In this document: positions 2,408 through 29,400 of the stretch, piece by piece
Layout: each line of letters opens with the position of its first letter
Position numbering within the stretch: position 1 is the stretch's first letter
Source: a bacterium
GTDB lineage: Bacteria; CBDUZB01; JAGLHV01
Length of the DNA stretch: 35,308 bases
Assembly (NCBI GenBank): GCA_023132075.1
Contig: JAGLYT010000001.1
Span: forward strand, 1 to 35,308
Direction of reading: 5' to 3'
The notes under the pieces: generated by a model
Seen by the model: the letters and a program-made list of their open reading frames with translations, nothing else
Database searches by the model: none
What the model was told of the DNA's origin: nothing
Translations under genes and position numbers: made by a program

Positions 2408-5400
2408 GTGGAGGGTAAACGAGGAAGGGTTTTCAAAGAAAAATCAAAAATCATTAAGCACCGAATTAAAAAAGCTCAGGATTTTATAAAAGAAAACAGT
2501 CTGTTTTTTAATGACCATCCGGAACTTCGTAAAAATTATTTATCTAATTTGTTTTATTTGCCCGAAGATTTAAAAAATATTGAGCAAGAAGAAATAAATG
2601 TTTTTATGGCTTTTCTGGATTATAATTTACTAAATCTTCTTGATGAGGCTGCGGTTGAAAAACTTCACAGTCAAATAGCAGAAAGAAATGTGAGGGATTT
2701 AAAGAGGTTCTTTTCCTTATTTGCTAAAATAAATACAAGTTTTTTAAATCAAGCATCTTTTATTGAGTTATTCGAAAGATGGAATAAGTTATTTATCCGT
2801 ATGAATAATTCTAAAATGGAAGAAGCATCGGATATTTTTTATAAGTCACTTGATTCGTATAGTAATTTTTTAACCCCAGAGTTTAAACCGGATGAAATTG
2901 AGGAAGATTTCCTGAAGTTGAGTTTATTATATTTAAGGGGAGATATTAAGGACATTCTTGATATTGAAAAGCAGGTGGTTATCAAGGGTGAGGTTGTTTG
3001 TGAATTAAAAAATGTGCCTTTAGCTCAGATTAATATTGTTTTCAATAAATTTCCTGATAAAACTAAGGAGTTAAGTCAGCTTAAAGATTACCAGGAGCTT
3101 TTAGATAAGGGTAAAGATGAGGATTTAGAAGATGCGGATGGAGATATTCAGAAGTCTATTTATGGACAGGATAAATCAGAAAATCTTTGCATACGGGAAA
3201 ATGTACAGAATGCCCGTAATGCCATTATAATAGAGCGACAGGCGTGGGCATTGCTTAAAAAGTATTATGAACAAAACAAAAAGGATTTTTCGGTAGATGA
3301 AAACAAATTAGATCGTTTTCTTTTTCAGGAAGAAGTTGAAGTTAAAGATAATGCCCGGGAGCATTTAAAACGAAGGATTTTTATTTTAGATAATATAGTA
3401 AAGGGATTATTAAAAAAATCAACTCAATCGCGAGGGAAGATTATAGGAAATCTCTTAAAAGAACTTGAAAAGGCACAAATTGAGATACGTAACTATATTC
3501 CTGAAGGGACAAACGAGTGGGTATTTAGTGTAGAAGATCCGGTGGGGATGGAACTTCCTACGATGACGGGTCCTTTATTGGTAATAGACGAAACAACCAA
3601 TTTGGGTAGTGCTATATCAGAAGGTATTTTTGGGCTTGGATTTTATACGAATTTTGCTGATTTTGATGAAGTAAAGGTTACTACAGGAGTAGGTGACGGC
3701 AAATTTTTTAAACTTACTATTAAAAAAGATAATGACGGCCGGTTAGTAATAACAAGTTTTAAACAATGTAATGGTGATTACAAAGGGACGAGGGTTGAAC
3801 GGGTCAAACATTTTCTTGAAGGTCAGATGCCGGACATTGATGCCATATTTGTTGATTATAGTATTTACCGTTATGTTGCTGCTATCCGGGATGTAAATAT
3901 TATTTATAAGGGTAAAATAATTAATGAAAATTTAAATCTTTTAGGAGAAGTTACTACTCTCTATGGAACAATTAAACTTTATGAAAACGATTCTAAGTAC
4001 CAGCGATTGACCCGAAGTTTTCTTTATGTGGAATATCCCAAATCAGAAGAATATTTCGCTCTTGTACCTGCGCACTTTTTAGAGATTATTTGTCAAAGAG
4101 GATTTACCATAGATTTGCCTCGCGGAATATCTTTAATTATATCCCGTCTTACCATTGATTATAAAGAGAAATATCTACCTATAGTTCAGCAGGCGGTAGC
4201 TGGAGCCTGTTTACAGGCAATAGTAAAATTGTATTATGAAGGAGGAGTTTTTCCACCGGGTTTATCCGAGGATTACTTTAGAGATGAGTATAATTTGGAT
4301 GGAAGAGGTGTTTTTGAAGGGGTTGGAGAAGATGCTGAAAATATCAATGAAAGCCGTATTGACGAGGTTGAATTTAGCCATTATATAATTGATGATAAAG
4401 AGGATAGCGATAAGGATAAAGAAATTAAAAATCGTTCTCTTAAATATCTAATTACCTTAATTGAAATAAAAGATAAAGATGGTGAAAAATTTTCGTTAAG
4501 AGGGAAGAAAGAAGAAATGTTTAAGGTTTTGAGAGAAGGGATGGAAGATCCCCAAAAGATTATAAAAGAACTTAATTTGGAAGATAGTTCCATTGGGTTT
4601 AGAACATACATTGAAAAAAATATTGAAGCAATAAGTGACAATATTGTTACAGAAAAGAATCTCAGAAAAGATTACACTCAAGAAGAAGTTGAAAACTCAA
4701 AGCCGATGAGAGATTTTAAGATGTTTACCGAGATTTTACTAAAATATATGGGTAAGGGACACATTAAAGTCAATTTTTATGAAAAGAGGGAAAAAAGATT
4801 AGCTGATTTTGAACCAAATTTAATTATTTGGAATCTTTATCATGTGAGAACATACATAGAAGAATTACAGAAAATAATTAACAAAGAAAAGGATGATGAC
4901 CCTGAAGCTCTATATCGTTTCTTCCGGAAAATATTGGATGATGTTACCCATGAGAGTGTACATTTTTATGATAAAGGTAAAGCATCTCATGAAAGTGCTG
5001 AAGAATTGGTTGGTTTGTTTGCCTGGATGCAAAAAAAACTAATTCGCGATTATGTAAGGGGTGAAAAAAACTGGGATGCTGTAATTAAGGAGTTGAAAGA
5101 GAAGACCGGGCAAGAATTTCAGGATGAAATGGATAGAGAAGCAAGAGGGATAGATGCGGAAGGAGAAACAAGTTTAGTAGAACACAAGGGAGCTGTAAGT
5201 ACCCCTGTTATGGTTTTAGGTGTATTAGGGTTATTTGTTAGTATATATGCCGTTGTCTTAGGTTCATTGTGGGGAATATGGATATTAGGTTTAGAAGTAG
5301 GGATATTATTATTAAGATGGATAATAAAATCAGGAGGAACAAGGGCTGGTCCTGATATAAGTTTTGAAGGTGAAGAAGGAGAAATTAGTAAAGACAATGT

Positions 5401-8400
5401 AAGTTTCTTAAAGCATTTAGGTGTCATTAATCCAAATTCACGAAGAAATAACCCGTTTAAAAAATTTCTAAGAATCGATCCAAAAGAAATAAAGAGTCGT
5501 TTAATAATAGAAGAAATACTCGCCATAAAAGTAGAACAAACCACTAAAAAAGCAAAAATTCCGCATAATATTGAAACATATAAGCAAAATTTACTATTCG
5601 TAACCAAATGGCTAAAAGCGATAGGTTTAGAAGAATTGGATGCTGATTATTTTACTAATTATTTATTTATGAAACAGGATAAGCTGAATAAAGCAGGACC
5701 CATTTATAATTTGTGTAATGAAGCAGCAAATATTTACGAGGTTATTAGCGGTGAGAGGGTTAGGATACCGGCAAAAACAGAAATAAGTAATATTTTATCA
5801 CAAGAGAAAAAAGCAGAATACCGCAGGCAAAATATCGCAGTTATAAAAACATTGTTAAGCAGATACAGAAAATTAAGATTGATTGAACAAGAAATAAAAA
5901 TTAAGTTTAGTCACTTTATTATTAATATGCATCCTAAAGGATTGATAAGCAATGCAAAGATTAGACTTCAACTATATCAGCTAGAGCAATTATATAAAAC
6001 AATTGAATCAAGGAAAAAGAAGAGTTTTATAGAGAAGATATTATCTATATTTTCTTTTAAATCCAAAAAAGAAGAGGCGACGGAAGTTAAATCTAACTTT
6101 TCCAGAGATAAATTATTAAAAATAATATCAAAACAGATCAGGTTAGAAAAGAAGATGAGGCTCATACCGGTTATTCCTTCCGTTACTGTAAAACGCAAAT
6201 CTGTTATAGGCTATTTATTCAGCCTAAGTATAGTTGGATTATTGTTTGGCAGTATATTTTCTGCTTTACCGATTGCATTGGGAGAAAAAATGCAGGATGT
6301 AATACCGGCAAAGACGATAGATAAAGATGGCAAAGTGATAATAAAAACAAAAGAAGATATGGAAAAGATAGTTGGGGAAGATATCGAGATGCTTTCTTTA
6401 GAAAACATTTCTGTGTTTAGCCCACAGGAAGATGCAAATGTTAGCTGGTATTTAGAGCAGACAGAAGAAATAGATAATGATTTGCAATTATTGATAGTAG
6501 GAAACAATTTTGATTTAATAGAAAACCTGCAAAATGAGAAATTCAGGAATAATTTAGATAAGTACATAATACCTTGTTTGTCGGGATTGGATAAAGAAGT
6601 ACAGATTTATGTAATTGATAATCTAAAATTGTCTAATTGGGTTAAGAGCAAGAATATAGAAGTATTAAGCAATGAAACAATCCCTTCTATAAAAGAAGAT
6701 AAAGGAAAGATTATTTTACCGGAAGAGTGGGTAGCAACATTGGGAGAAGGTGTAGATGAAAGCAATTTCTTAGAGAAAGCAGCTAAAGAAAAAGAAATTA
6801 CCAAAAAACAAGGACTTTTTAAAGGAGATTTTGCAACTCTGACTAATAAGTTAAAAGGATTAATTGATGAAATAGTAAATAAAAATGCTTTTGTTGCCTC
6901 AGCTGCTTCGGCAGAAGGGGTTTATATTGAAGTAATTGTGAATGCAACGATTGAAGATAGTATTAATGCTTCATTAGCTCAATACAAAACTGATTTGGAA
7001 AATGAAGGATATATAGTTACTATTGTTAATGATAATAATCTTAAGACTCCACAGCAAGTAAGGGAATATCTAATAGAAAGATATAATGCCGGGAAATTAA
7101 ACGGAGCTGTATTTGTAGGAGATTTACCAATTGCAGAAGCTATCCTGGTAAATGTTGCGGATACTTATGATTTAACTGAGCTTTTGGATTTCAGAGATGA
7201 GATAAATGAGTTAATTGAACAATATGAAGGAAATTATATCCAGGATGTTGAAGAATATATAGAATTATTTAGAAAATTCTATTTTTATCAACAAACTTTA
7301 ACTGAGGAAGAATGGACATCAATGGATTCATTAAATATGAAAATAGATGTTATTTTGGATAAAGAAAATGATTTTGAAGAAACTTTAATCAGGGAAGTTA
7401 GAAGTGGTGAGATTAAGGCATTTTTAGACGAAGGCAATGAGTTTGAAGATTTATTTCCCAAATCTTATTCTGAAGAAAAGAAAAAAGAGCTAATTGTGTC
7501 GATACAAACTAATTATTATGAATCATTTCCTTTTGATTTTTATTTTATGGATCTGAATAGAAAATGGGAAGATGTGGATAATGATGGTGTAATTAATATT
7601 TTACCCGGGGAAAGTAAAATTAATGATTTGGAAATATATATAGGCAGAATAGATGGTAAACCTTTTGCGTATGATGAAGTGAATGGTGAGTTTGTTTTTA
7701 ATCTTACTAAGGAAGCAGAAATATTAAAATATTATTTTAAGAAAAATAATGACTGGCGAACCGGTAATTTTTCTGCTTGGATGACTGATGCTCCTTATGA
7801 CAACAGCTCTTTGGTTTTTATAGATAATGAATTTGTGGAACAGCTTGGAAGAGGGTATAGATATAGAACTGGTTTAACTTTTGATAATAAGACCTTTATT
7901 AGTAATCCTGATCAAATGACTGCTCAGAGTTATTTAGAGTATCTTAAAAAATATTATTTATGGGTATTTTTAACTAGTCATTCAACTCCAACAACACATA
8001 GTTTTTTTAATATAAGCAGTTTAAATAACGAAAATTTTAGTAGCTGGGAAATAACTAATGCTAAACCACCTTTTTATTGGTTGGCTGCTTGTTCAGCTGC
8101 TGATTATAGAAAAATAAATTATATTGCCGGTTATTACCTTTTTGCAGAAAATAACATGGGATTAGTAGCTATGGGCAGTACCAGAGTCACAAATATAGAT
8201 GTAGCTACTTCGGATGGTTTTCATGAAAGCTTAGAAAGAGAAGATAATTTTGGAGAAGCACTTCAAAATTGGGTGGAAATTAGGGGAAGTATAGAAAATC
8301 CTGATAGGGCAGGATGGACCATTGTCGGAGATCCTACTTTAAAGCCGTTTCCTTCGGCAAATGAGACAACCTTTTTTAATCTTTTACCTAATTATGTTCC

Positions 8401-11400
8401 TTTTGTTGATTCTTTAAGAGGGAATTTGTCTTTTGACCAAGATTGTAATACTACTTTCCATTCCAAACCTGCTTCAATGAAAATTGAATATAAACCGGAA
8501 ATTCATAAAGATGTGCAGGAAGTAGAACCAAATCCGGAATCTATTGTATGGATCAATTATGATAGCTATAATTTAAACGGAGCGACAAAATTAACCTTTT
8601 GGGCAAAGGGGGAAAAAGGAGGAGAGCGTGCTTATTTTGGGATGGGGGATATAGACTCTGGTGATTCGTCTGAAATAAGTACAAATTTTATTAAACTTAC
8701 TAATGAGTGGCAAAAGCATACAATTGATTTAGAAGGCAAAGATTTAAGTAAAATTGAAATGGGTTTTTATCTTATAGTTTTTAACGATGAAAACCCTGAA
8801 GGTTGTGTGTTTTATTTGGATGATATCAAATACGAAAAAGACCCTGAAGTAGAAAAAGAAAAAAGCATTCCCGGATTGGGTGTTTTAGGTCCCCTTTTTG
8901 CATTGTTTTTTGGGAGATATATGCGTAATATTTTTAAGAGAAGACAAAAGATGCCAAAAATAAAAATTGCTCACTGGCGAGCGGCAGAATTAAATAAAGA
9001 TAATAAGCATTGTGGATATTTGAGTAAAACGATAGATAGTAAGAAATTTTTTTCTGAAAGTATGGAGCGAGAAGGAAAGGTTGTTAGGGGGATAAAGAAG
9101 GAAATTAATAAGTTACCAAAAGATAAGAAGACAGAGATTAATATTGATATGTCAGGTAAAAAAATTACATTAATCTTAACTAATGAGGATATTAAATTTT
9201 TGGAAGGAGAAAAAATAAATATTACTGCTTCTGAGGGGAATCTTCTGAGTCTTCTAAGCAAAGCATTAGCTCTGGAGAAAGAGGTTTATAAAAATACGGA
9301 TTATAATAAATTAAATGAAAAAATTATATTATCCTTGCTTGACCGGTCCCGCCATTTATCAGAAGATTGTTATAAGAACAGCTTTATAGGAATAAATAAA
9401 TCTATTCTTGAAATAAAAAATGAAAAAATAAGAAATATAGTTTTTATAATAGCTTTTATGCATGAGTTAAGGCATGAAGCAACCGGAAAAAATGATGATG
9501 TTTTTAAAGAAGAACAATTAGAAAAAGATGTTGTTCTTACCCTTAATCTGTTAAAAGAAGAAAATATTTTATTAAATGATTTTATTGGAGCGTTGGAACC
9601 GTTGATAAAAAAATCAGAGTATTTAAGCTTTTTAAATGACCTTCTTCCCGAATTTAAAAAATATAAAAGAGAACGAATTATAAAAAACACAGATACTTTT
9701 AATAAGGAAAAAATTATCAAAATAATAAAAGGGATAGAAAATACTATAAATGAAAATCCTTATGTTAGTTTTACCGTTGGTGGTAAAGAATTAACAGTGA
9801 AATTAAAAAAAGATAAGTGGAGAATACTGGAGAGATTTATTGAACGTTTTGTTTTCCCATCAATGGATGATGTAAACGATTTCCCGGAATTATTACAGAT
9901 TAAGAGTGATGAATTGCGGCCGGATGTATATATGCCTGATGATGGATCTTTTGGAACAATATTTTTAAAAGTAATGATAGTATCTAAAGTCCCTGTATTG
10001 ATGTTCGTAGAAATTCAATCAACCCCGAAATTTAGAATAATGAAACCTGTAAGTAAAAGGAAGGAATACAGTGTGTGGAAGATAAAAGTGATTGAAAAAT
10101 TTATCAAAGCTGCAGAGGAGCAAGGTGTCAAGACTTTTTATGCTTCAACGACTAAAGTAGTAAAAGATTATTATAAAGGTAAAGGATGGATTAGTAACGA
10201 TAATCTAAAGAATGATTATAACCGCGTATTTAATAAAGATAAAAATTGGAATAAAAAAGAAGTTTATGTCTTTGATCATTTTGATGATGAGATAATGAAA
10301 AGAATGGAAGTATGGTCTTATCAGGACATGAAAGAAGAAAAAATTGTTCCTGGCCACAAAGAGATTAGTATTTTTTCAGCAATGACTATAGGCAGTATAA
10401 TAGCATCATTTACCGGTTTTATCCCTGTTGTCAGTGCGGCACCGGAGGTGGCTACGGCTGGTTTTGGGATATCGTTGTTAGGAATGAATTTATCGGGGAT
10501 ATTTGCTGTTTTTATGTTAACATTGATGCCTTTTATGTCTTTTATTTCAATAAGAGCGCGGCAGGCAGTAGAATTAGATAAAGATGTTTTTGAAAGAGAT
10601 AAAAGAAAAATAAGGGGAAAAGTATTAGAGGAGATGCCAAATATAAAAACATTATATTCGCGATTCAATACTCTTGCTGAACCGGAAAAAGAACTTTTAA
10701 GAAAAGAATTCTATAAAATTGGTAGTGGACACTTTACTTTGTGGAGATTAACTAAACAAACAAATAAAAATTTAAGTCCTTATTTTCATGGCAGTTATAA
10801 AGATGCTTTAATAGTTAGTTTTCCGAATCTTGATTTAGAAAGATTAGGATTTGGCTATGAATGGGATACTAAAGAAAAAGGAATAGCGAGTGTCCAATAT
10901 GCCATAAGAAAAGAAAGGCCGGATTTATGGGATAAATGCCAGCGATTTGATAATCTTCTTGAAGCAGAAAAAGAAATTTTAAGACAGAAATTCTATAGAA
11001 TTACTACTGCACATTTTATTGTGTGGAAAATAAACAGCGCAAAGAACCAAAGTATTACTCCTTATTTTACTGGGAGATATTTAGATGCTTTGATAATCAG
11101 CTTCCCGAAACTCGGGTTAACGGTGGCTGAAAAAGAAGAATATATGAAAAAATATCCAAAGGAGAAGAAATTTACTTGGAAAGATAAAGGAGAAGGTATA
11201 TTTAATATTCGGCGTACTATTCAAAAACAAAGGCCGGATTTATGGAGAGGATATCAGCAATTTAATATTCTTACTGAACGAGAAAAAGAACTTTTAAGAT
11301 GGATGTTCTATAAAATTAGTAGCGGACATTTTGCCATATGGGGATTAAGAACAGCAATTAATAAGAAAACAAATACTTATTTTCATAGGAGTTATAAAAA

Positions 11401-14400
11401 TGCTTTAATAATCAGCTTCCCGGAACTTGAATTAGAAAGATTAGGATTTTTTGGCTATGATTGGACTACTAAAGAAAAAGGAATAGAGAGTATCCAGTAT
11501 GCCATAAGAAAAGAAAGACCTGATTTATGGAAGGTATACGAGAAATTAGGTAGTCTTACTGAACCAGAAAAAGAACTTTTGAAAAATAAATTTTATGAAA
11601 TCACCTATGCACATTTTGATCTATGGGAAATACACGGAGCAAAAGAAATAGAAATAGCACCTTATTTTAATGGCAGTTATAAAGATGCTTTAATAATTAG
11701 TTTTCCGAATCTTGATTTAGAAAGATACGGCTTTGGCTATGATTGGACTACTAAAGAAAAAGGAATAGAGAGTGTCCAATATGCCATAAGAAAAGAAAGA
11801 CCTGATTTGTGGGAGCAATACGAGAGGTTACATAGTCTTAGAGAACCAAAAAAAGAACTTTTAAGAAAAGAATTCTATGAAATTAGTCCCGGACAGCTTA
11901 AGATATGGCAAGTAGGGGGAGCAATGAATAAAAGAGTAGCTCGTTATTTTAATGGTAATTATATGGATGCTTTAATAATCAGCTTTCGGAAACTTGGGTT
12001 AGAAAGGGAAGGGTTTAACCGTAAGCTTATTTCAGGAGTACTAACTAAAAGAGAAAATGAATTATTTGAAGCAAGGAGAGAAGAAATAATCAATGACCCA
12101 ATGGGTCCTTTTGGCATTTTTGGGGATGAGGAAGCACGGCAATTTACTCATGATTTAATAGCCTTTTATTATAAAAAAAGAGGAATAGATGAAAGAATAA
12201 TTGATGATATAATGGATGAAATAGATGAAAATATTTCTGATTCCGAATCTGTTGTTGCAGGAATTTATGAAAACATAAATCTGGATGAAATTGTAAAAGA
12301 ATATAATAGTGACGATTATAGATTGAAAGAAGATCCGGAATTAAAAATAGAGATAGTAGGTAAAGATGTAGATGTAGAAAGGCCTATAGTAGTAGATGTT
12401 GGCTGTGGAAAAAATAATTTGTTGCCTGTTATTGTGAAGAAAAATCCAGGTATAGAAAAAGCTATTGGTACGGATGAAATAGATTATCATATAGAATCAG
12501 AAGATAATAGAGTAGAGTTTAGAAAACAACCTACACCATCTAAAATTCCTGTTGAAAATGGTGAGGCAGATAGAGTGATAATGTCTCTTGTATTACATCA
12601 TGCTACAGATGAAGTAATTAGAAATTTATTGAGAGAGTCTTCAAGAATTTTAAACCCTGATGGGAAATTAATAATCTTGGAAAATACATTTGCCGGAGGA
12701 GCTATTAAACCAAAATATAATAATGAGCTAAGTAAGCGTTTTTCAGAATTAAATGAAGAGCAAAAAGATAAGGTTTTCCGGTTTATAGAGTGGTATAGTG
12801 CAAGGTTGATAAGTAATATAAAAGAAATGCAGTTTGCTTATAATTGGAAGAGTATGGAAGAATGGAAAGAAATATTTGAGGAGGCAGGATTTACAATAGA
12901 AAAAGAAAATTTTCTTGGTATAGTTGATTTACCCTTTACTCCTAAATTGCCGTTGGGAGTTTTTGTCTTGAGGAAAGATGATTTTATCACTCAGAAGGAA
13001 AAAGTTAAGGAAAAAATAAAGGAGACTATAAAGTTTTTAAGTTTAATTAAAAAGGGGAATTGGGAAATAGATAAAGATATTTTAGATATAGATATTAAAC
13101 GGTTAAAAGAACAAAACAAGCAATTAAATAAGGGGCTGGTAAACTTAAAAGGTTTGTCAGAAATAAACGGTAAATTGAATGAAATAAAAGAAGAGACGGA
13201 AGAAAGAATTAAGGACAAAGCGATGCATAACTTAAGTATCTTAACAGAAATAAAAGAGTATAATGATATTATTAAATTGCTTTGTGATAAAGAGAAGGTA
13301 ATGACAAGGTTGGAGTTGGCAATATTAATTAAAATAATAAAGAATGAGAAAGAAATTTTTAGGCAAATGATTGATAAGGAAAAAGACCATGGAAAAATTA
13401 TTGCTATTCATATAGAAAGCATAGAATGGATGAGAAAGAAGGGTTTAACAAATAGAGAAATAGGTAAAATTATAATCTCTTGGCCAGCTGTTTTTTCATA
13501 TGGGAAAGAGAGATTTAACAGGGGAGAAATTAATTTTAAAAATGTAGGCATATTGGAAGAGGGAATTATCGATATTTTAAAGTCCTTTCCTTCATATTTT
13601 GCCTTGGATTCAGTTGTTCAGAAACAGAAAATAGAATGTATTAACTATGTAGAAACAAAAATAGGGGAAAAAATAAATCTGGTAGAATTTATAAACAAAT
13701 ATCCTCTATGGTTTAGTTATAGTGTAGAAAATAAAATTAAACCGACTTTAGATTTATTTATGAAAATACGTGATAAAAATAATGAGTGGACAGATATTTT
13801 TATGAGATTGTTAGCTTGTAATTTGGCAGTAACTAAATTAATTGTAAAAATAATGGGAGAAGAAAATACAAAAAAAATAGATGCAAAAAGAGTTTTAAAT
13901 GTTTACACTAAGTTAGATGTAAAAATTAAAAGCGATAAAAAAATCAAATTTAAGAAGTTAGATTTAGATAAGAATAAAGATACAGGAGAACATTTAAGGA
14001 CGGAAATAATTCAGATATTAAAAGATGAAGAAGACAAATATAAATCAAAAATGGTTAAAGAGCTTGAGGTTGTTTTTGAGGGGCTTATTAATGGTGATGT
14101 CCAAATTAATTGTGATGGTAAGGAAAAATTTAATACAGAATGGGGATGGGTTGATCTTGGGGAATTAAATAATTTTGAGGATTATATATCAGATAAAGGC
14201 AGACAGGCAGTTTTTTATCTGGTAAGGGATCTATATTTTGCAAAAGAGAAGGGATATATAGAGCTGAAGGGAGTACAAACTATTAGTATGCAAAACGTTT
14301 ATAAAGCATTACCCGATGGAATCAAAAAAAAGACTAATGCTAAATCTCAGGCACTATCATGTGCTAAATTTTTTGAAGCAAAACGTTTAATCGAACCTTA

Positions 14401-17400: not shown

Positions 17401-20400
17401 AGGAGATATTTTTAATAATGCCTGTTTAAAAATAGATTGTGCTGTGGATGTAAATAGAAAAATAATAGAAAAATTCGGGATGAGAATATCTAATGACGAT
17501 TATTTATTTGAGGAAGAAAACAATATAAAGTGGGAAACTGGGGAAGGGTTGAGGGAATTACTGCCTGCTCAAACAAAGATAGTAAATATTGAACAATTTA
17601 TAGAATCTTCAGAATTGATATTTGAAGGTAAGGTTCCTTTGAGTAATATAAGAATGATGATTGAACGATTACTTAGAGAGGATGTAGATATAATAATAAG
17701 AAGGTTGCTTGATGGAAACGAAGAGCTGATTTACGGTAAAGTAAAGGAAATAACTGAGCTTTACCCTGAAATTGGAAAGTATATAGGAAATGAAGATTTA
17801 ACCTTGTTGGAAATATATAAAAAATTGGCAAAAGATTCTGTAGATATTATAGATGAACAACAAAAGTGGGAGCAGGGTATAAAGACATATGCAGAAGAGA
17901 GAAATTTGAAGGCGGATAAAGTACATAAACAGTTAATTAAATCTTATGCGCAGAGTAAAGGATTAAACTTGTCTGACAGCAACATTGAAGAACTAAGCAA
18001 ACGAACTATAAAAAATGCTTTTACCAGGATTGATTCTACTGTAGATTTAAAAGATACAGTTATGGATAAATTTGGAATAGAAATGAATGATGAGCAATGT
18101 TTGAATATAGAAGAACGAAATACAAAATGGAAGGAAATGACAGATGAAGAATTAGTGCAGAAAGTAATATTGTTACATCCACAGGGAGAGATAAAGAATA
18201 CTGAACAATTCATAGAATATTCAGGATTGATATTTGAGGGGAAGGTTTCTAAAGAAGATGTGAGAGAGGTAATCAATAAGTTACTTAAGGAAGAGGAAGA
18301 GATAACTTATGAAAAAGTAAAGGATATAATTGCTTTTTCTCTGAAAGAGAAAGAGAAAGAGATAGAGAAGATAAAAAAAGATGAAGAACATAGACAGTTA
18401 ATTAAATCATATGTACAAAGTAAAGGATTAAACTTTTCTGACAGCAAAATTGAAGCACTAAGCAAACGAACTATTAAAAATGCCTTTGGCAGGATTGATT
18501 CTACTGCGGATTTAAAAGATACAGTTATGAATAAATTTGGAATAGAAATGAATGACGATAGATGTTTAAGTATAGAAGAACGAAATACAAAATGGAAGGA
18601 TATGACAGATGGAGAATTAGTGCAGAAAGTAACATTATTGCATCAACAGGGAAAGATAAAGAATACGGAACAATTTATAGAATCATCAGGATTGATATTT
18701 GAGGGGAAGGTTTCTAAAGAAGATGTGAGAGAAGTGATTAATAGATTAATCGCTGAGCAGGAAGACCTGACTTATGAGAAATTAAAGGATGTAATTGATC
18801 TTTATCCGGAAATTAGGGAATATATGGGAAATGAAGATTTAACCTTGTTTGAAATATATAATATATTAATTAAATCATATGCGGAAAAACAGGGTTTGGA
18901 ATTATCAATAGATACAATTGAGCCATTAAGGAGATATTATTCCGTTGATAATTTTTATAGAAAAATAGATTATGCGGTAGAATTAAAAAAGATAACAGAG
19001 GAAAGATTTGGGATAGAAGTAACGGACAATTATTGTTTATCTATAGCGGGAGATATAGGGGATAAAAAATGGCGGGAATTTAAAGAGAAAACAGATGAAC
19101 AATTAAATCAATGGCTGGCAGGTAATATGTTTCATTATCAAGCTGAAATAACTGAGATTGAGCAATTTGCCGGAGCTTTATCAAAAGTATCGGAAATTAT
19201 ATTCGGTGAGGAGATATCGGAAAATGAAATAAAGAAAATAATTAAAAAAGTGCAACAGAGTAAATTAAAACTGGTTTATGGAAATGTTAGTAAAGTAATT
19301 ATTCTTTATCCTAAAATCAAAAATTATGTAGAAAAGGAAGGCAAAGAGCAGAACTTGAAATTGTCAGATACTAAGATTATGGGTTTAATTCATAAATACA
19401 GTGAAAGGAATATTTATAAAATAATAAATGCTGCTATAGATTTAAAAAAGACAATAATGGAAAAATTCGGAATGGAAATATTAGATAGTTACTGTTTAGA
19501 ACGGGTAAGAGACAAAACGGATTGGAAAAAGCAGGAAAATACAAAATTAGACAAATGGCTGGTTAATGAAGTTTTACATAAACGGGCTAAGATAATAGAT
19601 ATTAAACAATTCATAGAAGCTTCGGAATTGTTACTTGAGGGGAAAGTTTCCCGGGAAGATATGAGGGAAATAATTAATAAGTTAGTTGCTGAGAGAGAAG
19701 GTTTAACTTATGGAAAGATAAATGAAGTAGTCAGTCTTTACCCGGAAATTGGAAAATATATAAAAAAGAAAGATTTAAGTTTATTTGAGATATATGAGAT
19801 ATTAATTAAATCATATGCGGAAAAGCGGGCTTTAATTTTAACCGATAAAAAAACAAAAGAATTAGGTAAGAGCTATATTGTCCCTAAAGCCTGTGAAAAA
19901 ATAGATTTTGCTGTAAAATTAAGAACAATAGCGGAACAAAGGTTTGGATTAGAAATGTTTGATAGTTACTGTTTGTTTACAGTAATGCACAATACGGAAT
20001 TGGAAAAATGGCCGGAAAAAATGACTGAGGATGAATTGGATAGGTGGTTTTTTCAAAAAGGAGTACATGCACAGGCTAAAATAGTGAATGTTGAACAGTT
20101 TGCCGGAGCTTTATCCGGAGTATCAGAAGTTATACTGGGTAAAAAAACATCGGAAGTTAAAATAAAAAAAGTAATTGAGCAATTGAGTAAAGAAGGGCAG
20201 GAGCTTACCTTTGGAGAAGTAAAGAAAATGTTAATGGAGAAAAAGCTAAAAACAGGAAATAGAATTTTAAAAACAGTATTATTGACGATAACAGGATTAG
20301 TGGTTTTATCCTGTGGTTTTATTCCCCTTGCAAGTGCGGCACCGGGTATAGTGACTACTGCAATCGAAGTATCAATGTCGGGAGTAGGTTTTTCGGGGAT

Positions 20401-23400
20401 AGAAATGGGAATATTAGGCATTATGCTCTGTGCAACGATGATAACTTCACCGGATAAAAGCCTCGATAAGAAAAAAATAACTTTTGATAAAAGCAAAAGA
20501 TTTTCTTTAAATCACCGATACTGGAAAATATCTTTTGCAGGAGACTTAATTTTCTCAGATTATTTACTTAATAATTATGCTATTGAAGGGGAGATAAATG
20601 TAGGTGATGGAAAAATATATTCTTCTAATAAATCTTGTTTAATAATTGGTTCTCTTGGTGAAAATGAGGTTGTTCGAATGACAGGATTTACAGATTATAT
20701 TGAATTAATTATTACCGGAAAAAAGGAAAATGGCAACACTATTACCCTTATTGCCAATATTACGCCGGAATACCTCAAGGAAAAACTATTAGTTAATATT
20801 TTCGAAAAAAGTAAGGAATTAAGGGGATTATTGGATTTAAAAGTAGCAATAGTGGGTAAAAAAGACAGTATTGAAAAAATTAAAAAGATTTGGGAAACAA
20901 ATAATTTTCCGGTTTCTGATAATAAGATTTTATTGACACATTCAACTACAAACGGAGAAGCTATACGTTCATCTCTTATGATTATTGTTGGCAAAGACGA
21001 TATTAGATTAATACACAAAAAGGGCAGACAGTTAGATTGGGATAGTCTTATAATAAAAGAAGTTCAGGATAGCGGGCAAGAATTAACGGGGATAATAACA
21101 ACAAAAAAAACACGAGCTGTAAACGAATTGGATGAAACCAAAAATAATTTGTCAAGCTTTTTGAAAAATAAATATAATCTTAATGAAAATCAAAAATTAA
21201 TCTTGGAATCAGCTATTAGTAATGGCTTTATTTGTTTTAATAACGACATGCTTAGATCTGACCAAAGAATACCATCTCTGGACAAGTATAAACTGCATAG
21301 AGCTATAAAAGGGCTTGAAAAATTAGGATGGCTTACAATTCCGACCAAAGGACGTTATATTTTAAGCAAAAAACTAATCGATGATTTGCGGGAATCTCAA
21401 CTACTCAATGATGAAGTGTACAAGGAATGGATGGATATTGTAAATATGGAAGAAATATTTAACGAATTTGTCTATCCTAAAAAAATTGGAGATTCCTATG
21501 GCTATCGGGAAGATAGGACATTAACCAGTGAAGATAGAGAATTTATGTTGGCAATGTTGCAACTAGCTAAAGGAGAAATTATTTTTGAACCGGACAAGTT
21601 AAAAAACAAATTTTCCTTTTTAAAAGACAAATATAGTAAAAAACATTTTCAGAATTTCTTTGCTGTTTTAGAAAAATGTAATTTATTGTATAGCCCGGTG
21701 AAAGGACGATATTTACTAAGTAACCGATTTATAGATGAACTAAAAGAAAAAGGGCTTATAGCAGATGTTTTTTATGAAGAATATGTAATGGTTTTAAAAA
21801 GAGAAAAATTATTTAATCGGTTTGTCTATCAAAATGATATAGGGTGGACAATTAAAGGGAATAGATTAATTAATCAGGATAGAAACTTTACAATAAAAAT
21901 GGTAAATATAATGTCTTTGTTAGAAGGACCTTTTGATATTGAAAAATTATTTAATTTATTTAAGGAAAATGAAGACATTAATAAAAAGCAGCTTGGTGTG
22001 TTATTAGGTAATTTAACAAATGCAAATATTTTAGACAGGCCGGTAGGGAACAGATATTTATTTAGCAAAGAATTTATTGATTTGTTATTTAAAGAAGGTT
22101 TTATTGATAAAGTTACCAAAGACAAATGGACTAATTTATCAAGACGGGAAAATATGTATAAGCTTCAAACCGATAAAGTAAAAGGTATCTTGACAGCGGC
22201 AACATTTAAAGTTCTTGATGTTATCGTTGACAATAAATTAGATGAATTCACAAAAAAAAGTATTTCCAAAGATTTTCTTCCTGATATGTCAATAAATACA
22301 GTGAAGAAATCTTTAAAAGCACTCAAGGAAATGGAATTTATTACATATGATGACAAAAGCACTTATCATGTTATTTGGGCAATAGAAAGCATTCAAAATG
22401 ATAAGCTTTTGGAAATTATTATAGAAATAGAAAATAAAGCTGATTTAGAAGAGGATTTTAAGGCAGCAAAAGACCTATATGAGAGAGCCATCAAGGAATA
22501 TTCTAAGATTAAGGAAGGAACATCTGATTATGAGTTAGTTAGGAAATCAATCAAACGCTGTTCGAAAAAGATTGAAGATAAAGGGGTTGCTATTATTAGA
22601 AAGGAATTGCCTGAAAATTTCACAGCTCTTATTTTATTCTTTATAATTCAGAGATTAAGCCGGAAGGATATTCTAAAAGATGAAAGGATTAATACAATTA
22701 TCTTGAGAAATATAACCAAAATGCTTATTAACGATGAGTGGGTAAAATATGAACAAAGTAAAAAGGTTGTGCCAACGAATAAAGCACTAAAGCTTCTTTA
22801 TGGTTCTGAGTTCATTACAATTGTTTTTGAAAAATCATCTTATACAGATTTAGAAATTGAAAAAGCAAAAAAAATACTTAATGGAGAAGGATATGAAATC
22901 AATGAAGAGACTATTAAACGGGTAATAATATTGTTTAGAGAAAATATAGAAATTAAACCGGGTTATATGAAAATTTTGGCAGAGACATTACAGGAAAGGA
23001 TAAAAGCAATAAATGCAGAAAGAGGGAAAGGAATAGATGTTCCTAATTACTTTATTTTGTATCCCGTAGAAGTTTTATTCTTGCTGGTAGATAGTTATAT
23101 AAAAAATAATAAAGCTGTTAGTTTTCATTGTATTTACAAAGCTTTGCCTTTAGCAAAATCACCAAAAAATTTATTAGGATTATTAGGTGATTTTGTAAAT
23201 TCATCTTCCACGGGTAAAAAAAATAAGATAGGTAATAGATTATTAAATGCATTTAGATTCTTTCCGGATAAAATGAAAGAGAATTTTGAAAAAATAGAAA
23301 CTAATGAGTCTATTAGTAAAAGAATTGTAGGAAAATTTATTGAAATTCTTTATAAATCTCCGAAATGTTTTGAAATACTTATAATCTTAGATAAGGTAAA

Positions 23401-26400
23401 ACCTGTTTTAAAAGAAGAAGTAATGGAACATCTTAACGAAAAATTTGAAATTATAAAAGAAGTATTTCTTGTAAATTCAGCAAAGGGGATATCTATAGAA
23501 GATGCTTTAGCCGGAATAGAAAACGATATGTTTGATGCATTTATTAGAAATGATAACGGTGAAATTATATTAGTTGCTGTTGATGAAGACGGGTTAAAAG
23601 GATCTGCAAGAGATGAAAAAGGTCAAGTAACACTGTTATCTTATGCAGGTATGTTGATGTTGGTATTAGGTATAGGGATTTTATTTGTATTATCCCCTTT
23701 ATGGATTATGGAAATTCTCCTAATCGGTATTATTATGGGAGGTATGGCTATTTATCATAGTCCACCGTGGAGTAAATCAGACACAAAATTCCCCTTCTCT
23801 ATTATTCAAAATCCCTTAATAGCCCTTTTTGTATTAGGACTGCTTCCCCGGAAAGAAATAAGTCCGCAAGTTTTAGACGAGGTTCCTGTTTATACTGACA
23901 TTCTGGAAATAGCGGATATTGAGTGGGATGGACTTATAGGGACCGATAGTCTGGGATATGTTGTACAGAGAGTATTACGCAGTTTAATAGGTGGTTCTCC
24001 GGCGATAAAATTTATTGCCGGCCAAAAGATAGAAGAATTAATGGGTAATGAAAAACAAAAGAATTTAGTGTTAGATATAGCCAAAAATTTGGATTTATCC
24101 GGTGATGAAGAACTTTCCAGCATTGTTGAAATTATAAGAAGGCCGGATAATTTGGTAAAGGAAATAGGAGAAGCAGCCAGAAAATATCTTATTGCTCGAG
24201 GAGATGTTAAAATTCCTGAGCATGATGAGGGTTTACTTTTAGCTGCTAATTATCACATTCAGAGGGAAATAAGCAGTATTGCTGAGGCAGAGAGCAGACA
24301 AATTTCTGTTAACTATGTAGAAAGCGAGGGCAAAAGAAAAAAATTGCCTATAAAATCATTTATTGAAATAATCGGTAAACTTATTATTTCAAGTATAGGA
24401 GTGATTGTTTTAATAAACTTATTTTCCCAATTTATAAAAGGTTGGTTGTATATAATAGTAGTTGTGGGAATAGGCATAATTGGAGGGAAATTTGCAGTAA
24501 AATGGGCTTTTAGTCGTCCGTTAATGAAATGGAGGCAAACAGTTAATGCGTTAAAACCGAAAGATTTAGAATTTATTCTTGGGGATAAGAATGTTAAGTT
24601 TTATCTTAAAATAGAGTCTTTTGGTAAGGATTTAATTGATAAAGGAGAAGAATTAGAAGAAAGGTTAAAAAAATTAGGGGTTGATGTCGAAATCTTAAAG
24701 TATGACGATAAAAAACCTCTTTCTTTTTCCGGAAACTGTAATAAGATTATAATTATAGGATTGTTTCGAAGAAAAAAAACGATTTCTGATATGGATAAGT
24801 TTAAAAAAAATGATATAGCAGTTCGTTATTTTAAAGGCAAAATACCCGAAAAGATGCCTATGAATATAATTCAATGTTATTTAGACGAATTTGAAAAAAT
24901 AGTGCATAATCTGGTTGAATACAAGAAAGAAGTCGTTGAGATTGAAAATATATTATCGGGTGAATTTAATGAAGAAAAATTAATTATTTATACAGATAAA
25001 ATATTGAGGGAGATTTTCGTTTATATAAGAAACCCTGAAAAAGATATTATGCCTATTTCTGAAAGTGAAAAAAAAGTTAGGCAGATTTTTGTGAAAAATT
25101 GCAATTATAATAAAAAAGATGCCCGGAGATTAAGCGATGCATTGGTATCCAGTAAAACTTATTTGCAAATATTAAAGGGTAATAATAAAAAAATAACAGA
25201 TAAGATAACCGGTAATTTATTATATATTCTTGCGTATTCAAAGAGTACATTGGATAAGATAAGAGTTAAGAAAGATATTTTGTTTAATGTAGAGAGATTA
25301 TTTTTTAGCGCAATTGATATAGAAATGTTAAAGAGAGAGGGATATGATAATAAAGAAATAAGAAGTAATTATTTTTCGGGAGAAAATACAGGTAACTTTA
25401 TTTATTTACCTGAAAAGAAAGGTTCCGTTATTAATGTTAATGCTATTTTTTTCATTCGGAAAGATTGGAGAGATATAGTTAATTTGTCTGATGGATACAG
25501 GAAGGTGATACAAGAAATTTATAATGGGGAAAAATCATCGATTCCCATTAGCGAAGATTCATGGAGAGATTTATGGAGGGAAGTAAACCGCCTTAATTTG
25601 CTATTTGAAAAATATTTAAGATCAAAGAAAAATATTTCGAAAGAGAGTTTAGTTCTATCGAAAGAACTAAGAACACAATATTCAGATGATTTAATTGACA
25701 GGATTTGTGCTATGAGGATAGTGAGGAATGCTTTAGAGTCATTTCCTGGGGTTAAATTGAGCAGTAAATTTATGGAAAAATTTATTGAAGAAATAAGAGT
25801 TCCTTCTTTTCCTAAGGATGTTAAAGAACTGGAAGTTTTATTTTTATATTTCGCTAAGGAATATAAAGGGTGGGAAGAAAAAGGTTTGGAACCCTTTGAG
25901 ATAGAATCAATGCTGCTTAGAATTTCTGTAGATGAAGCAAAAATGTTAGAAAATTCCGGTATGAATATAGAAGATATAAAGCTTTTAGCAACTAGAGACA
26001 AAGCAGAAATTAGAAAGGAGATTGAAAGTAAAAATATAAGTACCCCTATAGAAAAAGATGAAAAATCGCGGATTAAAAGATTTATAATATTTGAAAAAAT
26101 CAATCTTACAATTGTTTCTCTTATTGCCTTTCTTATAGGTGCTTTCATTTATATTAATAAAACACATGGCACCGTATTTGCAGTAGGTTTTATGACTTTA
26201 TTGGTGCTGTTGCATTATAATCATTTTTTAATAAATAAATATTCTTTGAAAAAAAGAATGAAACAAGAGATAAGCACAAAATATATAAAATCACTAATTG
26301 AAGATGAAAGTAAAGAAATTTATCTTATACCGGAGTTTACCGGTCAGAAAGAATTAAAAATGGACAAGATAATAAAAAGACTAAATAAAATGGGAATAAA

Positions 26401-29400
26401 AAATGTGGAATTTTTTGAATTTTCCAGCACTAATAAAATTACTGTTTTAAATGATGAAGGTATTATAATAATAAGGTTATCTCCTGTTCCACTGGAAGCG
26501 GGAAAATCTTACTTAACTGATTGGAAGGATCTTTTCCGTTATTTTGATGAAAAATTAAAGACAAAAGCTGAAAAAATAAAGGTTGAAGAAATTACAATTA
26601 ACATTGAATTTTTCGAGGAGGTAATCGATGAATTAGAAAAAGAATATAAAAAAACGGATGATCGTGGCGGAATAGAGCCATTAAAGACGTTGATTATTTT
26701 TCCCTTGTTAGTTTTTGTGGCAGGCATATTTGCATCATTTAGTGGATTTATAACTGAATCAAGTGCAGCATCGGATGTAGCAATTGCTGCTCTTGGAGTA
26801 CCGTTAGGGTTGGGGATTATTTTTAACTGGTTAATTTTGTCCGTAAGTAAAATGGGGGATGAAAATCAAAGATTAATTTTGAAATCGGCTATTAGTAATG
26901 AGTTTGTGGAAATTGTTGTAGAAATGGAAAATAAAGCTGATTTGGAACCTGATTTTAACAAGGCAAAGCGGCGTTATAAGGAAGTCATAAAAAAATATTC
27001 TCGGATTGAAGGAGGTGTGGCACAGGAGGCTATTAGACGCTGTTCGGGAAAAATAGAGGAGAGGGGAGTTAAACTTGTTAGAAAAGAAGTACCGGATTTG
27101 TTTGATAGTATAGTCTTATTTTATTTGCTGCAGGGATTTACTCGTGAGGAAATAATAAAGTCAAAAGGGTTTGGTGTTCCGCATTTGCAAAAAATAACTA
27201 CAAGTCTTTCAAACGCAGGATGGATAGAAAAGGGTAAGGGTAACAGTTTTATTACTACAGGGAAGGCAGATAACCTTATTGGTAAATCATCGACAGATTC
27301 TCTATTACAGTTATCCAATCAGGAAAGTGTAGAAATGCTTATTAGTTTAAAATTGCCGGTCAATAATGAGAACATTGAAAAAGTGAAAGTATTGAAGGAA
27401 AATAAATTTCCGATAAATTCAAAAACTATCATAAATAATTCGGTAGACACACTAAAAATAAAAATCAAAACGATTGAGGACTATAACTTAACGAATAAGC
27501 AGAATAGTAATAGAAGGGGAGGATTCCGATCGATTATAACTTATTCATTAAAAAAAATAGAATTAATATTAGAAACTGTTAAAAGAGCTGATCATTTAGG
27601 GATAAAGATTTATCTGAATGATATTGAAAAACTTGTATTGGTCAAAGGAGAAAACGGTTTTCTTGGTGATTTAAATAATTTTGTTAAGTCAAAAAGAACA
27701 ACAATTAGGGGAAAGAAAAGATTAACGGATTCAAAAATGAAAGTTGAAAGGGAAATAGTTGGTAGGAAATTATTAAAAGCAGCATTAATATGGCCGGAAA
27801 GATTTTGTGAAATTTTTGAAGAACTGGAGAAAAATAAACATACTGAAGAAAAAACGATAGAATTTATTAATATTCTTTATGACTTCCCGGAATTTTTTGA
27901 AATACTTTTAATTTTAGAAAAGGTTAGACCTGTTTCAAAAGAAGAAGCAATAATAAAATTTAAAGAAAAACCGGAAACGGTAAAAGAAGTATTTCTTGTA
28001 AATTCAGAAGAAGGGATACCTATAGACGATGCTTTATCAGGATTAGAAAACGATTTATTTGATGTGTTTATAAGAAATGATAATGGTGAGATTATATTAT
28101 TAGAAAAGAAGGAAGGAAAAAGTGAACCAATAAATCCGCAGGTCTTGGGTGGGGTTCCTGCTTATTCCAATGTTTCTGAGATAAAGAGTATTGACTGGGA
28201 TAGGGTTAATCAATTAGGTGAGTTGGAGATAAAAAAGGTATTACAAAAATTATTCCGTAGTTTAGTATCCGATAAATTTACAATAAAATTTATTTCTTGT
28301 CTAAAAATAGAAGAATTGATGAGGAATGAAGACCGAATAAATTTGGCCTTAAAGGTTGCAAATGATTTGGATTTAATCAAGCGTGAAGGGTTTCCTGGTA
28401 TATTTGAAATTATAAGTAATTCAGATAATTTGGAAAAAGAAAAACAAAACGCAATTAAAAAATATTTAAATGAGCTTTTGCAAAATAAAGCAGGTTACGA
28501 CAAGGATGAATTAAAAACTATAGAGATTGATCCTGAATTATTTAAGCTTATTTATGATTATAATTTCGGGAAGGAATTTAAAGTGCAATTTGCTGCCCCT
28601 GAAGAAATAAAAAATGCAGGAGGCAAGACATGGTTTATAAACAACGAAAATAGAACAATATTATTAAATACTAACTATGTAATAGAAAGCAAATCTGCTT
28701 TTTATGGTTATTTAAGAAAACTTCTTCTTCCGTGGGTTTTAGCACATATTAATGGGCACTTAATTAAGCTGCCTTCCTCTCTCGGCTTCCTTAGTAAACC
28801 TATCAATTATCTTTATGCGCCTCTTAAAATCTTCCAGAATCTGATTTATAATAAAAATATAAAAGATGACTTATTTTGGTTAGTACGGTTAGTACGGTTT
28901 TATATTTTTATATTTGCCTTTTTTTATCTCGGAATTTGCATAGCTGAATTGAGTCATTCCATAGCATTTTCCTCGTTATGGAGAGATGGTTATGCATCGT
29001 TATCTCTCTCACTATTTAACCCCGTTCTTTATGTGCATGAATTTGGGAGGCCTGTTTTCTTTTCATATCGTTTATCAAAAGCTTTGGTATTTGTTTCCGG
29101 AGCTATAGGAATGATAATATATAGTTTAATGTTGTTAAAAAGTGCCTCTTGGATGGAAAAATACAAGAAAGAGTGGTTTTTAAAGAGAAGTTTCTCATAT
29201 CTATTTTTTATGATTAGTGGTTATTTATTTTTATATGCAACGGTAGATATTTTCGGAATGCAAAGTTTTTTTGGTTATGACACACATGGAGATTGGAGTC
29301 TGCTTGTTAATCTTGGACTTTCTCCAATTATTCCGTTATTTGTATTATTGATATTAGTGTTTTATTCAGCAAGTTTTTTGGCGAAAGAAATCAAATATTT

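Follow-up and report, generated by a model that had tools for sequence, protein, structure and literature searches.

Homologous membrane-hairpin cassettes as candidate tethers of a giant bacterial protein

How might a polypeptide of more than ten thousand residues be arranged at a membrane, and what are the similar pairs of hydrophobic helices that recur along it? Both questions are raised by a 35,308-nucleotide (nt) stretch of bacterial DNA (contig JAGLYT010000001.1 of GenBank assembly GCA_023132075.1), referred to here as the window. A sequence-only reading of the window had proposed that the helix pairs are duplicated anchoring modules that staple a very long, mostly soluble chain to the membrane at intervals. 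They are encoded in one reading frame, in which residues (aa) are numbered as (nt − 2)/3 + 1:

2..35308, + strand: single uninterrupted reading frame, part of a giant protein (11,769 codons, 0 stops, open at both ends)

Forward frame 2 is free of stops over all 35,308 bases, versus 357 to 1512 stops in each other frame, so that the window represents an internal part of a single giant gene. Neither TGA, TAA nor TAG occurs in frame, so that nothing points to an alternative genetic code. The encoded protein has at least 11,769 aa and is multidomain and largely unannotated. Only weak beta-propeller repeats (aa 1-821) and two S-adenosylmethionine (SAM) methyltransferase domains are recognizable by Pfam and NCBIfam. 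Candidate transmembrane (TM) helices number about 25 over this length.

Six members of a hairpin family were found in the frame, together with a related block that lacks one of them. The evidence for each, including scores of hidden Markov models (HMMs) and independent E values (iE), is given in brackets.

5189..5371, + strand (aa 1730-1790): cassette H0 (jackhmmer domain iE 3.6e-10; tail 15.7 bits versus decoy 2.8)
10322..10561, + strand (aa 3441-3520): cassette H1 (hydrophobicity, regular expression, HMM, AlphaFold2 [AF2])
15356..15736, + strand (aa 5119-5245): cassette H2, the most complete copy (hydrophobicity, regular expression, HMM, jackhmmer)
20222..20461, + strand (aa 6741-6820): cassette H3 (hydrophobicity, regular expression, HMM)
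23579..23875, + strand (aa 7860-7958): cassette X (jackhmmer iE 1.2e-36; collinear alignment with a clean gap)
26651..26890, + strand (aa 8884-8963): cassette H4 (hydrophobicity, regular expression, HMM)
27740..28468, + strand (aa 9247-9489): paralogous block without cassette X, matching aa 7737-8063; a natural "minus-hairpin" control

H1 to H4 share a motif at the junction of helix 1 and the loop, represented by the peptides GFIPVVSAAPEV (aa 3472), GFISTASAQPDV (aa 5150), GFIPLASAAPGI (aa 6772) and GFITESSAASDV (aa 8915). In H1, helix 1 (aa 3455-3474) runs into GFIPVVSA↓APEV (aa 3472-3483; nt 10415-10450), where the arrow marks a putative signal-peptidase-type site after A3479 (nt 10438); helix 2 (aa 3497-3517) is followed by RARQ. 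H2 comprises helix 1 (aa 5135-5153), GFISTASA↓QPDV (aa 5150-5161; putative site after A5157, nt 15472) and helix 2 (aa 5177-5198), and continues with a KAIGTRAGP tail and the short NPLTAFLVLAVIPRKK element (aa 5217-5232). The n-region of H3 is KLKTGNRILK, after which come helix 1 (aa 6759-6777), GFIPLASA↓APGI (aa 6772-6783; putative site after A6779, nt 20338), helix 2 (aa 6797-6817) and DKSLDKKK. This copy is located between the last repeat of a 152-aa series and a domain at aa 6823-6960. H4 has helix 1 at aa 8896-8914, GFITESSA↓ASDV at aa 8915-8926 (putative site after A8922, nt 26767) and helix 2 at aa 8928-8946; the segment directly following it (aa 8962-9096) is a paralogue of aa 7463-7602. 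H0 is a partial member, with ~43 hydrophobic residues that correspond to two helices without a loop, followed by the RWIIKSGGTRAGP tail; it matches only helix 2 and the tail of H2 and has no GFI..SA motif. X consists of two abutting helices (aa 7876-7903 and 7904-7921) and the NPLIALFVLGLLPRK element, again without the GFI..SA loop.

The similarity among these copies exceeds what hydrophobic composition alone produces. The regular expression GFI[PST]..SA[AQ][PS].[VI] matches at aa 3472, 5150, 6772 and 8915 and nowhere in 2000 shuffles. Leave-one-out HMMs, each built from three 80-aa copies, recover the fourth at 17.0 to 33.3 bits (iE 3e-7 to 3e-12), and the rest of the 11,769 aa, despite ~20 other hydrophobic segments, yields no score above 0. 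Decoys were the reversed protein and 50 versions shuffled within 20-aa blocks so as to retain local hydrophobic composition; their maxima were 0.6 bits for the four-copy HMM and 5.9 bits for the six-member HMM. The tail LLLxWxxKxxGTRAGP shared by H2 (LLLGWLVKAIGTRAGP, aa 5189) and H0 (LLLRWIIKSGGTRAGP, aa 1769) scores 15.3 to 15.7 bits against a decoy maximum of 2.8, and the NPL..PRK element (aa 5217 and aa 7937) 7.2 to 7.3 bits against 0.0. A jackhmmer search seeded with H2 (aa 5119-5245) converges on H0, H1, H2, H3, X and H4, with domain bounds at aa 1755-1809 for H0, 3459-3546 for H1, 6751-6816 for H3, 7860-7958 for X and 8901-8948 for H4; it recruits no other TM cluster of the giant protein. 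The cluster at aa 11199-11274, whose GVGISGLL recalls GFGISLLG of H1, was considered as a seventh member and is recruited by no HMM.

Much of the sequence-only reading survives these comparisons. All peptides that it quoted were recovered in frame and in place within the one stop-free frame, and the nucleotide string that it noted in H1 and H3 is real (13 nt, AGTGCGGCACCGG). The shared motif does better than composition-matched shuffles, and the view of the hairpins as duplicated homologous modules, not random hydrophobic patches, is supported by the HMMs, jackhmmer and the decoys. The claimed spacing of 5 to 6.5 kb holds approximately, since motif-to-motif distances are 5034, 4866 and 6429 nt (4.9 to 6.4 kb), and the copies are only roughly regular. 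A family of five copies was correct for the four with the motif, while the fifth, H0, contributes only the second helix and the GTRAGP tail, without the loop motif. The NPL..PRK elements at 15650-15706 and 23810-23866 are both present, the latter as part of X, a sixth cassette that had been overlooked. Six cassettes do punctuate the protein, but unrelated TM pairs interrupt the chain too. Hydrophobic clusters outside the family include those at aa 2068-2094, 2955-2971, 8123-8166, 8700-8737, 9630-9794 and 11199-11274; those at aa 8123-8166, 8700-8737 and 9630-9794 are pairs or clusters, and those at aa 2068-2094 and 2955-2971 are single helices.

The hairpins are embedded in a mosaic of internal duplications, as found by chunked phmmer comparison of the protein with itself. 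The duplicated blocks include aa 2-220 and 600-821, aa 5551-5688 and 6823-6960 (the latter directly following H3), aa 7046-7529 and 11289-11769, and aa 7463-7602 and 8962-9096. Hairpins sit at the boundaries of such blocks, and their flanks cannot be aligned with one another; the same comparison found no deeper "super-repeat" homology between whole inter-hairpin segments. Codon choice at identical residues gives the relative age of the cassettes. Same-codon counts in five hairpin pairs, observed versus expected from codon usage, are 7/9.1, 10/8.6, 11/7.7, 10/9.1 and 6/6.3, and the count is elevated in one pair, H1-H3 (15 versus 7.9 expected). All other repeat families show a clear same-codon excess (e.g., 84 versus 48.8 expected). 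Because synonymous sites are at expectation in five of six hairpin pairs, the hairpins are the oldest repeats in the gene. The columns invariant in H1 to H4 are nevertheless G, F, I, S and A at the helix 1/loop junction, and the invariant Ser is encoded by AGT in three copies and by TCT in H2. Retention of the motif at saturated synonymous divergence therefore indicates purifying selection on the loop.

Hydrophobicity and charge both suggest that the cassettes enter the membrane. All eight helices of H1 to H4 reach a Kyte-Doolittle value of at least 1.6 over 19 aa. On an additive Hessa-type scale, seven of the eight sum to <3 kcal/mol, and helix 1 of H2 fails. The 15 residues before helix 1 contain 3, 4, 5 and 4 K+R in H1 to H4, respectively, and the 15 residues after helix 2 contain 4, 3, 6 and 1. 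None of the 88 loop residues is K or R (P ~5e-7 at 15.3% K+R, for copies that are not independent), and each loop carries one or two D/E. At 42 to 64 aa, the K/R-free stretches at the hairpins rank with the longest of a protein in which 15% of residues are K or R. Flanks rich in K/R and acidic loops free of K/R therefore predict an in-out-in hairpin by the positive-inside rule. Each cassette would most likely form a helical hairpin in the cytoplasmic membrane, both of its termini facing the cytoplasm and only a short loop or turn being exposed on the outside.

An even number of crossings is also indicated by the natural control. Blocks at aa 7440-8080 and 8940-9500 align collinearly except for X, which accounts for a clean gap of ~85 aa: the junction ...FIRNDNGEIILVAVDED[X]EISPQVLDEVPVY... 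corresponds to ...FIRNDNGEIILLEKKEG-KSEPINPQVLGGVPAY... in the uninterrupted paralogue. Since the flanks of X are contiguous in the paralogue (aa 9247-9489), X must span the membrane an even number of times, and the short NPL..PRK element is therefore not a third span. The proposal of an even number of helices per module is thus supported by the K+R distribution and, independently, by the X indel. The content of the segments between hairpins is of interest in the same respect, as an enzyme domain lies between H1 and H2 with no TM segment intervening:

12377..12904, + strand (aa 4126-4301): SAM-dependent (class I) methyltransferase domain (Methyltransf_23, 1.1e-8; Methyltransf_11, 8.4e-8)

This is a cytoplasm-type enzyme, and its position is consistent with inter-hairpin segments that face the inside of the cell. 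These segments have 16 to 21% K+R and a helical composition. The sole segment bracketed by single TM helices, aa 2095-2954, has 9.8% K+R and a distinct composition.

As the overall explanation of the family, tethering by membrane hairpins is the reading that we favor, with moderate confidence. Because nothing large must cross the membrane, the hairpins could insert cotranslationally by a YidC/procoat-type route and tether successive cytoplasmic stretches of ~1,000 to 2,100 aa. H1 to H4 would in addition expose an acidic loop that lacks K/R and begins with the invariant G-F-I-x-x-x-S-A, and this loop is probably a recognition or processing site, not a mere linker. The sequence itself shows homology, hydrophobicity, charge asymmetry, the indel of X and purifying selection on the loop; membrane insertion, its orientation and route, tethering and any cleavage are inferred from these. 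The anchors envisaged by the staple proposal are thus supported, and stapling of a long soluble chain may be what they do. It is probably not the whole story, because the loop, and not the helices, is most conserved and because H0 and X manage without a loop.

Several observations weigh against this reading. Helix 1 of H2 contains P and R and is only marginally hydrophobic, and the upstream flank of H0 is acidic, which makes the orientation of H0 less clear. The four copies H1 to H4 are not independent observations. The structure prediction suggested by the sequence-only reading gave the expected arrangement for H1, with a helix at aa 3450-3479, a short helix and a helix at aa 3497-3519, but the AF2 model is of low confidence (predicted local distance difference test [pLDDT] 62) and was based on a four-sequence alignment. 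With respect to the proposed role of the loop, hydrophobic regions of 12 to 22 aa exceed those of typical cleaved signal peptides and are typical of uncleaved signal anchors, and the specificity of signal peptidase I does not account for the invariant G-F-I at −8 to −6 or the Ser at −2. No homologue was found in any searched collection.

The loop itself resembles a known kind of processing site, a layout that the sequence-only reading had missed. Sec signal peptides with a signal peptidase I site have a basic n-region, a hydrophobic h core, a helix breaker at −4 to −6 and small residues at −3 and −1 (PMC9360617). By these sequence rules, helix 1 and the motif qualify as a Sec signal peptide with the site SA↓A/Q-P/S in 4/4 copies. 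The 3, 4, 5 and 4 K/R in the 15 aa before helix 1 form a basic n-region, and the site has A at −1 in all copies, V/A/A/S at −3, P/S/P/T at −5 and A/Q/A/A at +1, with Pro only at +2. A further rule for signal peptidase I sites is the absence of Pro at +1. The short N-terminal h-region of such signals (about 7 to 15 aa) has no counterpart here, the elements being internal with uncharged h-regions of ~12 to 22 aa. After the site come 10 to 27 uncharged or acidic residues and then the second helix with its basic cytoplasmic end. Since H0 and X span the membrane twice without a loop, the conserved loop of H1 to H4 calls for an additional role, for which a signal peptidase I site is the simplest candidate. 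Other readings of the motif were rejected by inspection. The hydrophobic helix precedes GF and does not follow it, contrary to a prepilin-type (G↓F) site; Cys occurs only in H3, contrary to a lipobox; and the P4 and P2' residues are unfit for a rhomboid-type site.

If the site were used, the giant frame would encode a polyprotein. H1 to H4 would be internal procoat-like signals. At the external face of the membrane, signal peptidase I would cleave them at S-A↓A/Q and release pieces of 1,678, 1,622 and 2,143 aa (aa 3480-5157, 5158-6779 and 6780-8922) in addition to the end pieces, each held in the membrane by an N-out helix at its N terminus and a C-out helix at its C terminus. Cleavage would add to membrane insertion and not replace it. 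The rules for n-, h- and c-regions, for −3/−1, for a helix breaker and for the absence of Pro at +1 are obeyed in 4/4 copies, and the c-region and cleavage-site residues are the best conserved in the cassette despite saturated synonymous divergence. The loopless, tight hairpins H0 and X suggest that a loop is not needed for anchoring alone, and the evenly spaced copies are the motif-bearing ones. Precedents exist in M13 procoat, in flavivirus and bunyavirus polyproteins and in the Bradyrhizobium FbcH cytochrome b/c1 precursor, and cleavage of giant proteins is an open question in the literature, in which no cleavage points are known. The length of the h-regions, as in uncleaved signal anchors, and conservation at −8 to −6 and −2 beyond the needs of signal peptidase I argue against cleavage. 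The A-x-A rule is also permissive. Cleavage at the loop is considered possible but rather unlikely.

The remaining explanations dispense with a role for the loop or with the membrane. The hairpins could be passive relics of old segmental duplications, with a motif that reflects common descent and a loop that has no specific role. A protein that is a mosaic of internal duplications, including five 95-aa and six 152-aa repeats, fits this explanation, as does the excess of same codons between H1 and H3 (15 versus 7.9). It appears improbable, since the hairpins are the oldest repeats, with five of six pairs at synonymous expectation, and yet have an invariant core between flanks that cannot be aligned; moreover, the Ser is kept across the AGT and TCT codon families. 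Quite improbable is an intra- or intermolecular helix bundle, in which the hairpins would pack together through a glycine-rich helix 2 and a conserved polar N/E, drawing remote parts of the chain together or creating a pore instead of acting as independent tethers. Small residues abound in helix 2 and in the stretch leading to it (AGFGISLLGMNLSG, AAGLSLLEMNLPGVVVVGLVG, SGVGFSGIEMGILG), and a polar N or E is kept there in H1, H2 and H3, but H4 is without most of the small-residue segment, conservation peaks in the loop and not at a helix-helix interface, and small-residue motifs are common in TM helices. Location outside the membrane, as buried helix pairs of soluble domains or as internal sortase- or exosortase-type sorting signals, is very improbable. 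The low AF2 confidence would allow buried pairs, and SAAPxV, helix 2 and basic residues superficially resemble a three-part sorting signal. However, the protein, with 15% K+R, has few K/R-free stretches as long as these (42 to 64 aa), and the sorting-signal models of NCBIfam and Pfam give no match at E ≤ 1. Each motif is also internal and follows a helix with a basic n-region, which puts the preceding chain in the cytoplasm, where substrates of sortase-type enzymes are not located.

Known systems share parts of this architecture. Nearly all giant proteins of Omnitrophota have many TM helices, e.g., 147 in a protein of 147,155 aa, and the largest class (46%), with TM helices only, has been interpreted as cytoplasmic domains attached to the inner membrane; according to these preprints, insertion at such length is unvalidated, and the final topology and cleavage points are unknown (bioRxiv 10.1101/2023.11.21.568195; 10.64898/2026.06.07.730766). 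A survey of huge proteins likewise leaves cleavage open. The protein described here resembles the Omnitrophota giants ("Archaeovorin" and the multi-enzyme and TM-only classes) in its very long open reading frame (ORF), sparse Pfam coverage, internal repeats and methyltransferase domains (PF08241 is common in Omnitrophota) and in TM helices spread at ~1 per 1,000 aa. With at least 11,769 aa and ~25 candidate helices, it shares with them an ORF of >10,000 aa with numerous TM helices. No SecA-DEAD, C39, S8 peptidase or dockerin/TSP3 domain was found in the window by Pfam and NCBIfam, although the ORF is open at both ends and such domains could lie outside. This protein shows no sequence similarity to any protein in the searched collections, and membership in the Omnitrophota classes cannot be claimed. 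Periodic TM anchoring ("staple") of giant proteins has thus already been described and is not new. The Omnitrophota papers give TM counts and topology classes but no homologous hairpin cassette, loop motif or cleavage point; the novelty lies in a homologous, selectable cassette whose conserved motif is predicted to be exposed, and in its indel behavior.

The hairpins inserted by YidC and cut by leader (signal) peptidase, of which M13 procoat is the model, are the closest in layout. They consist of a first hydrophobic segment with an A-x-A-type site right after it, a short acidic loop that carries no positive charge and a second hydrophobic segment, and both cytoplasmic flanks are basic; the procoat site reads ...PMLSFA↓AEGD, compared with ...GFIPVVSA↓APEV in H1. 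Procoat differs in being a 73-aa protein with an N-terminal signal, whereas the module here is internal and repeated, with thousands of flanking residues, and has no sequence homology to procoat; its insertion route and cleavage are hypothetical. Internal signals are cut by signal peptidase in flavivirus and bunyavirus polyproteins and in the Bradyrhizobium japonicum FbcH cytochrome b/c1 precursor. An internal hydrophobic segment with its site divides these precursors into membrane-anchored proteins, as would be the case here, but a sizeable domain is translocated after their signals, whereas only 10 to 27 residues would be exposed at the cassettes and cleavage is hypothetical. The LPXTG, PEP-CTERM, PGF-CTERM and GlyGly-CTERM signals of sortase, exosortase, archaeosortase and rhombosortase systems also combine a short conserved motif, a TM helix and basic residues. 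They occur at the extreme C terminus of exported proteins, unlike the present motif, which is internal and follows an in-to-out helix; NCBIfam and Pfam searches at E ≤ 1 gave only unrelated noise.

Relatives of the protein were sought widely, within the limits of word-indexed searches and of searches that detect close relatives. The statement that no described family has this motif was confirmed, in that no curated Pfam or NCBIfam family matches the cassettes. The profile search that the sequence-only reading called for, made exhaustively by HMM against 1.84 billion representative proteins, returned a single match, which is spurious: P0001 (E 1e-5) is a repetitive, probably nongenuine translation of 399 aa that matches only LIVGS..SSGFVSAQL. 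No relatives of aa 4801-5600 were found in GTDB representative genomes, no match to the hairpin motif in viral or metagenome contigs (JGI metagenomes, IMG/VR) and none to the repeat profiles in viral contigs. Searches by blastn and tblastn against phage and plasmid records found nothing. The sequence of the window, looked for by an exact 50-mer, does not occur in the genome, metagenome and viral contigs. A word-indexed collection of 5.8 billion protein clusters yielded no protein at E ≤ 1e-3 for queries of 350 to 1000 aa, including the methyltransferase domains. The giant protein is thus an orphan among the searched collections.

A second kind of internal signal-like arrangement occupies window positions 6203-8914 (aa 2068-2971). 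A helix at aa 2068-2094 has the n-region VTVKRK and the c-region ALPIALG↓EK. The 860-aa segment after it has 9.8% K+R (versus 16 to 21% elsewhere), 31% S/T/N/G/Y/W, a net charge of −8.5 per 100 aa and a weak match to CBM30 (E 0.013), and ends at a 17-aa helix (aa 2955-2971) followed by RYMRNIFKRRQKMPK. The arrangement resembles a type I membrane protein lodged within the giant chain, and aa 2095-2954 would probably be the only large external loop in the window.

The other repeats of the protein belong to several families. Positions 2-2464 (aa 1-821) encode at least 13 tandem beta-propeller-type blades of ~55 aa, with weak PQQ_2, NHL and YVTN matches; aa 2-220 and 600-821 within this region are 57% identical. 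Five ~95-aa repeats (10598-12022) immediately follow H1, and six ~152-aa repeats (17222-20173) end immediately before H3. Some of the 152-aa copies are 79 to 80% identical and are therefore recent expansions. Both families look helical and have no match in Pfam or PDB sequences. Two sets of three ~117-aa repeats (21206-22201 and 33938-34981; aa 7069-7400 and 11313-11660) carry a winged-helix-like signature, L..L...G.L..P.KGRYLLS, and were modeled by AF2 at pLDDT 69. Foldseek comparison of this model with the PDB gave only E values of >0.4, mostly for winged-helix domains of MarR, GntR, Rpa2 and MCM8, and profiles of the 95-aa, 152-aa and 117-aa repeats had no significant match in the PDB. If it is real, the modeled winged helix would fit a cytoplasmic location. 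The larger unit aa 7046-7529 is 53% identical to aa 11289-11769 (21137-22588 versus 33866-35308; phmmer E 1e-89 for the best chunk). The duplicated unit at the 3' end probably continues beyond the window, possibly with another hairpin cassette.

The second enzyme domain comes just after the four-helix cluster at aa 9630-9794:

29510..29965, + strand (aa 9837-9988): second methyltransferase domain, Methyltransf_4/TrmB-like (E 1e-12)

The GC content is ~31% overall and 29 to 36% along the window. The coding strand is rich in purines, with a GC skew of +0.23 to +0.44 and a positive AT skew along its entire length. Three ORFs are present on the minus strand, at 5119-5607 (162 aa, antisense to and overlapping the coding region of H0), 25519-26148 and 32002-32457. 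All three are most likely spurious, because of the 35-kb sense ORF.

The giant proteins of prokaryotes (10,000 to >100,000 aa) form a recognized blind spot, and the window offers a defined homologous hairpin cassette in place of anonymous TM calls. The block at aa 9247-9489 provides a natural control: gain or loss of a cassette can leave the flanking sequence intact, a point in favor of an even number of membrane crossings. The conserved loop designates four exact candidate peptide bonds with a signal-peptidase-type site. Cleavage there, if true, would provide the first concrete cleavage points for any prokaryotic giant protein. Giant genes would then yield stoichiometric sets of large membrane-tethered proteins from one translation event, and an operon-like polyprotein would replace the picture of one enormous protein. 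If there is no cleavage, the cassette would be a compact way to tether a very long cytoplasmic chain without translocating anything large.

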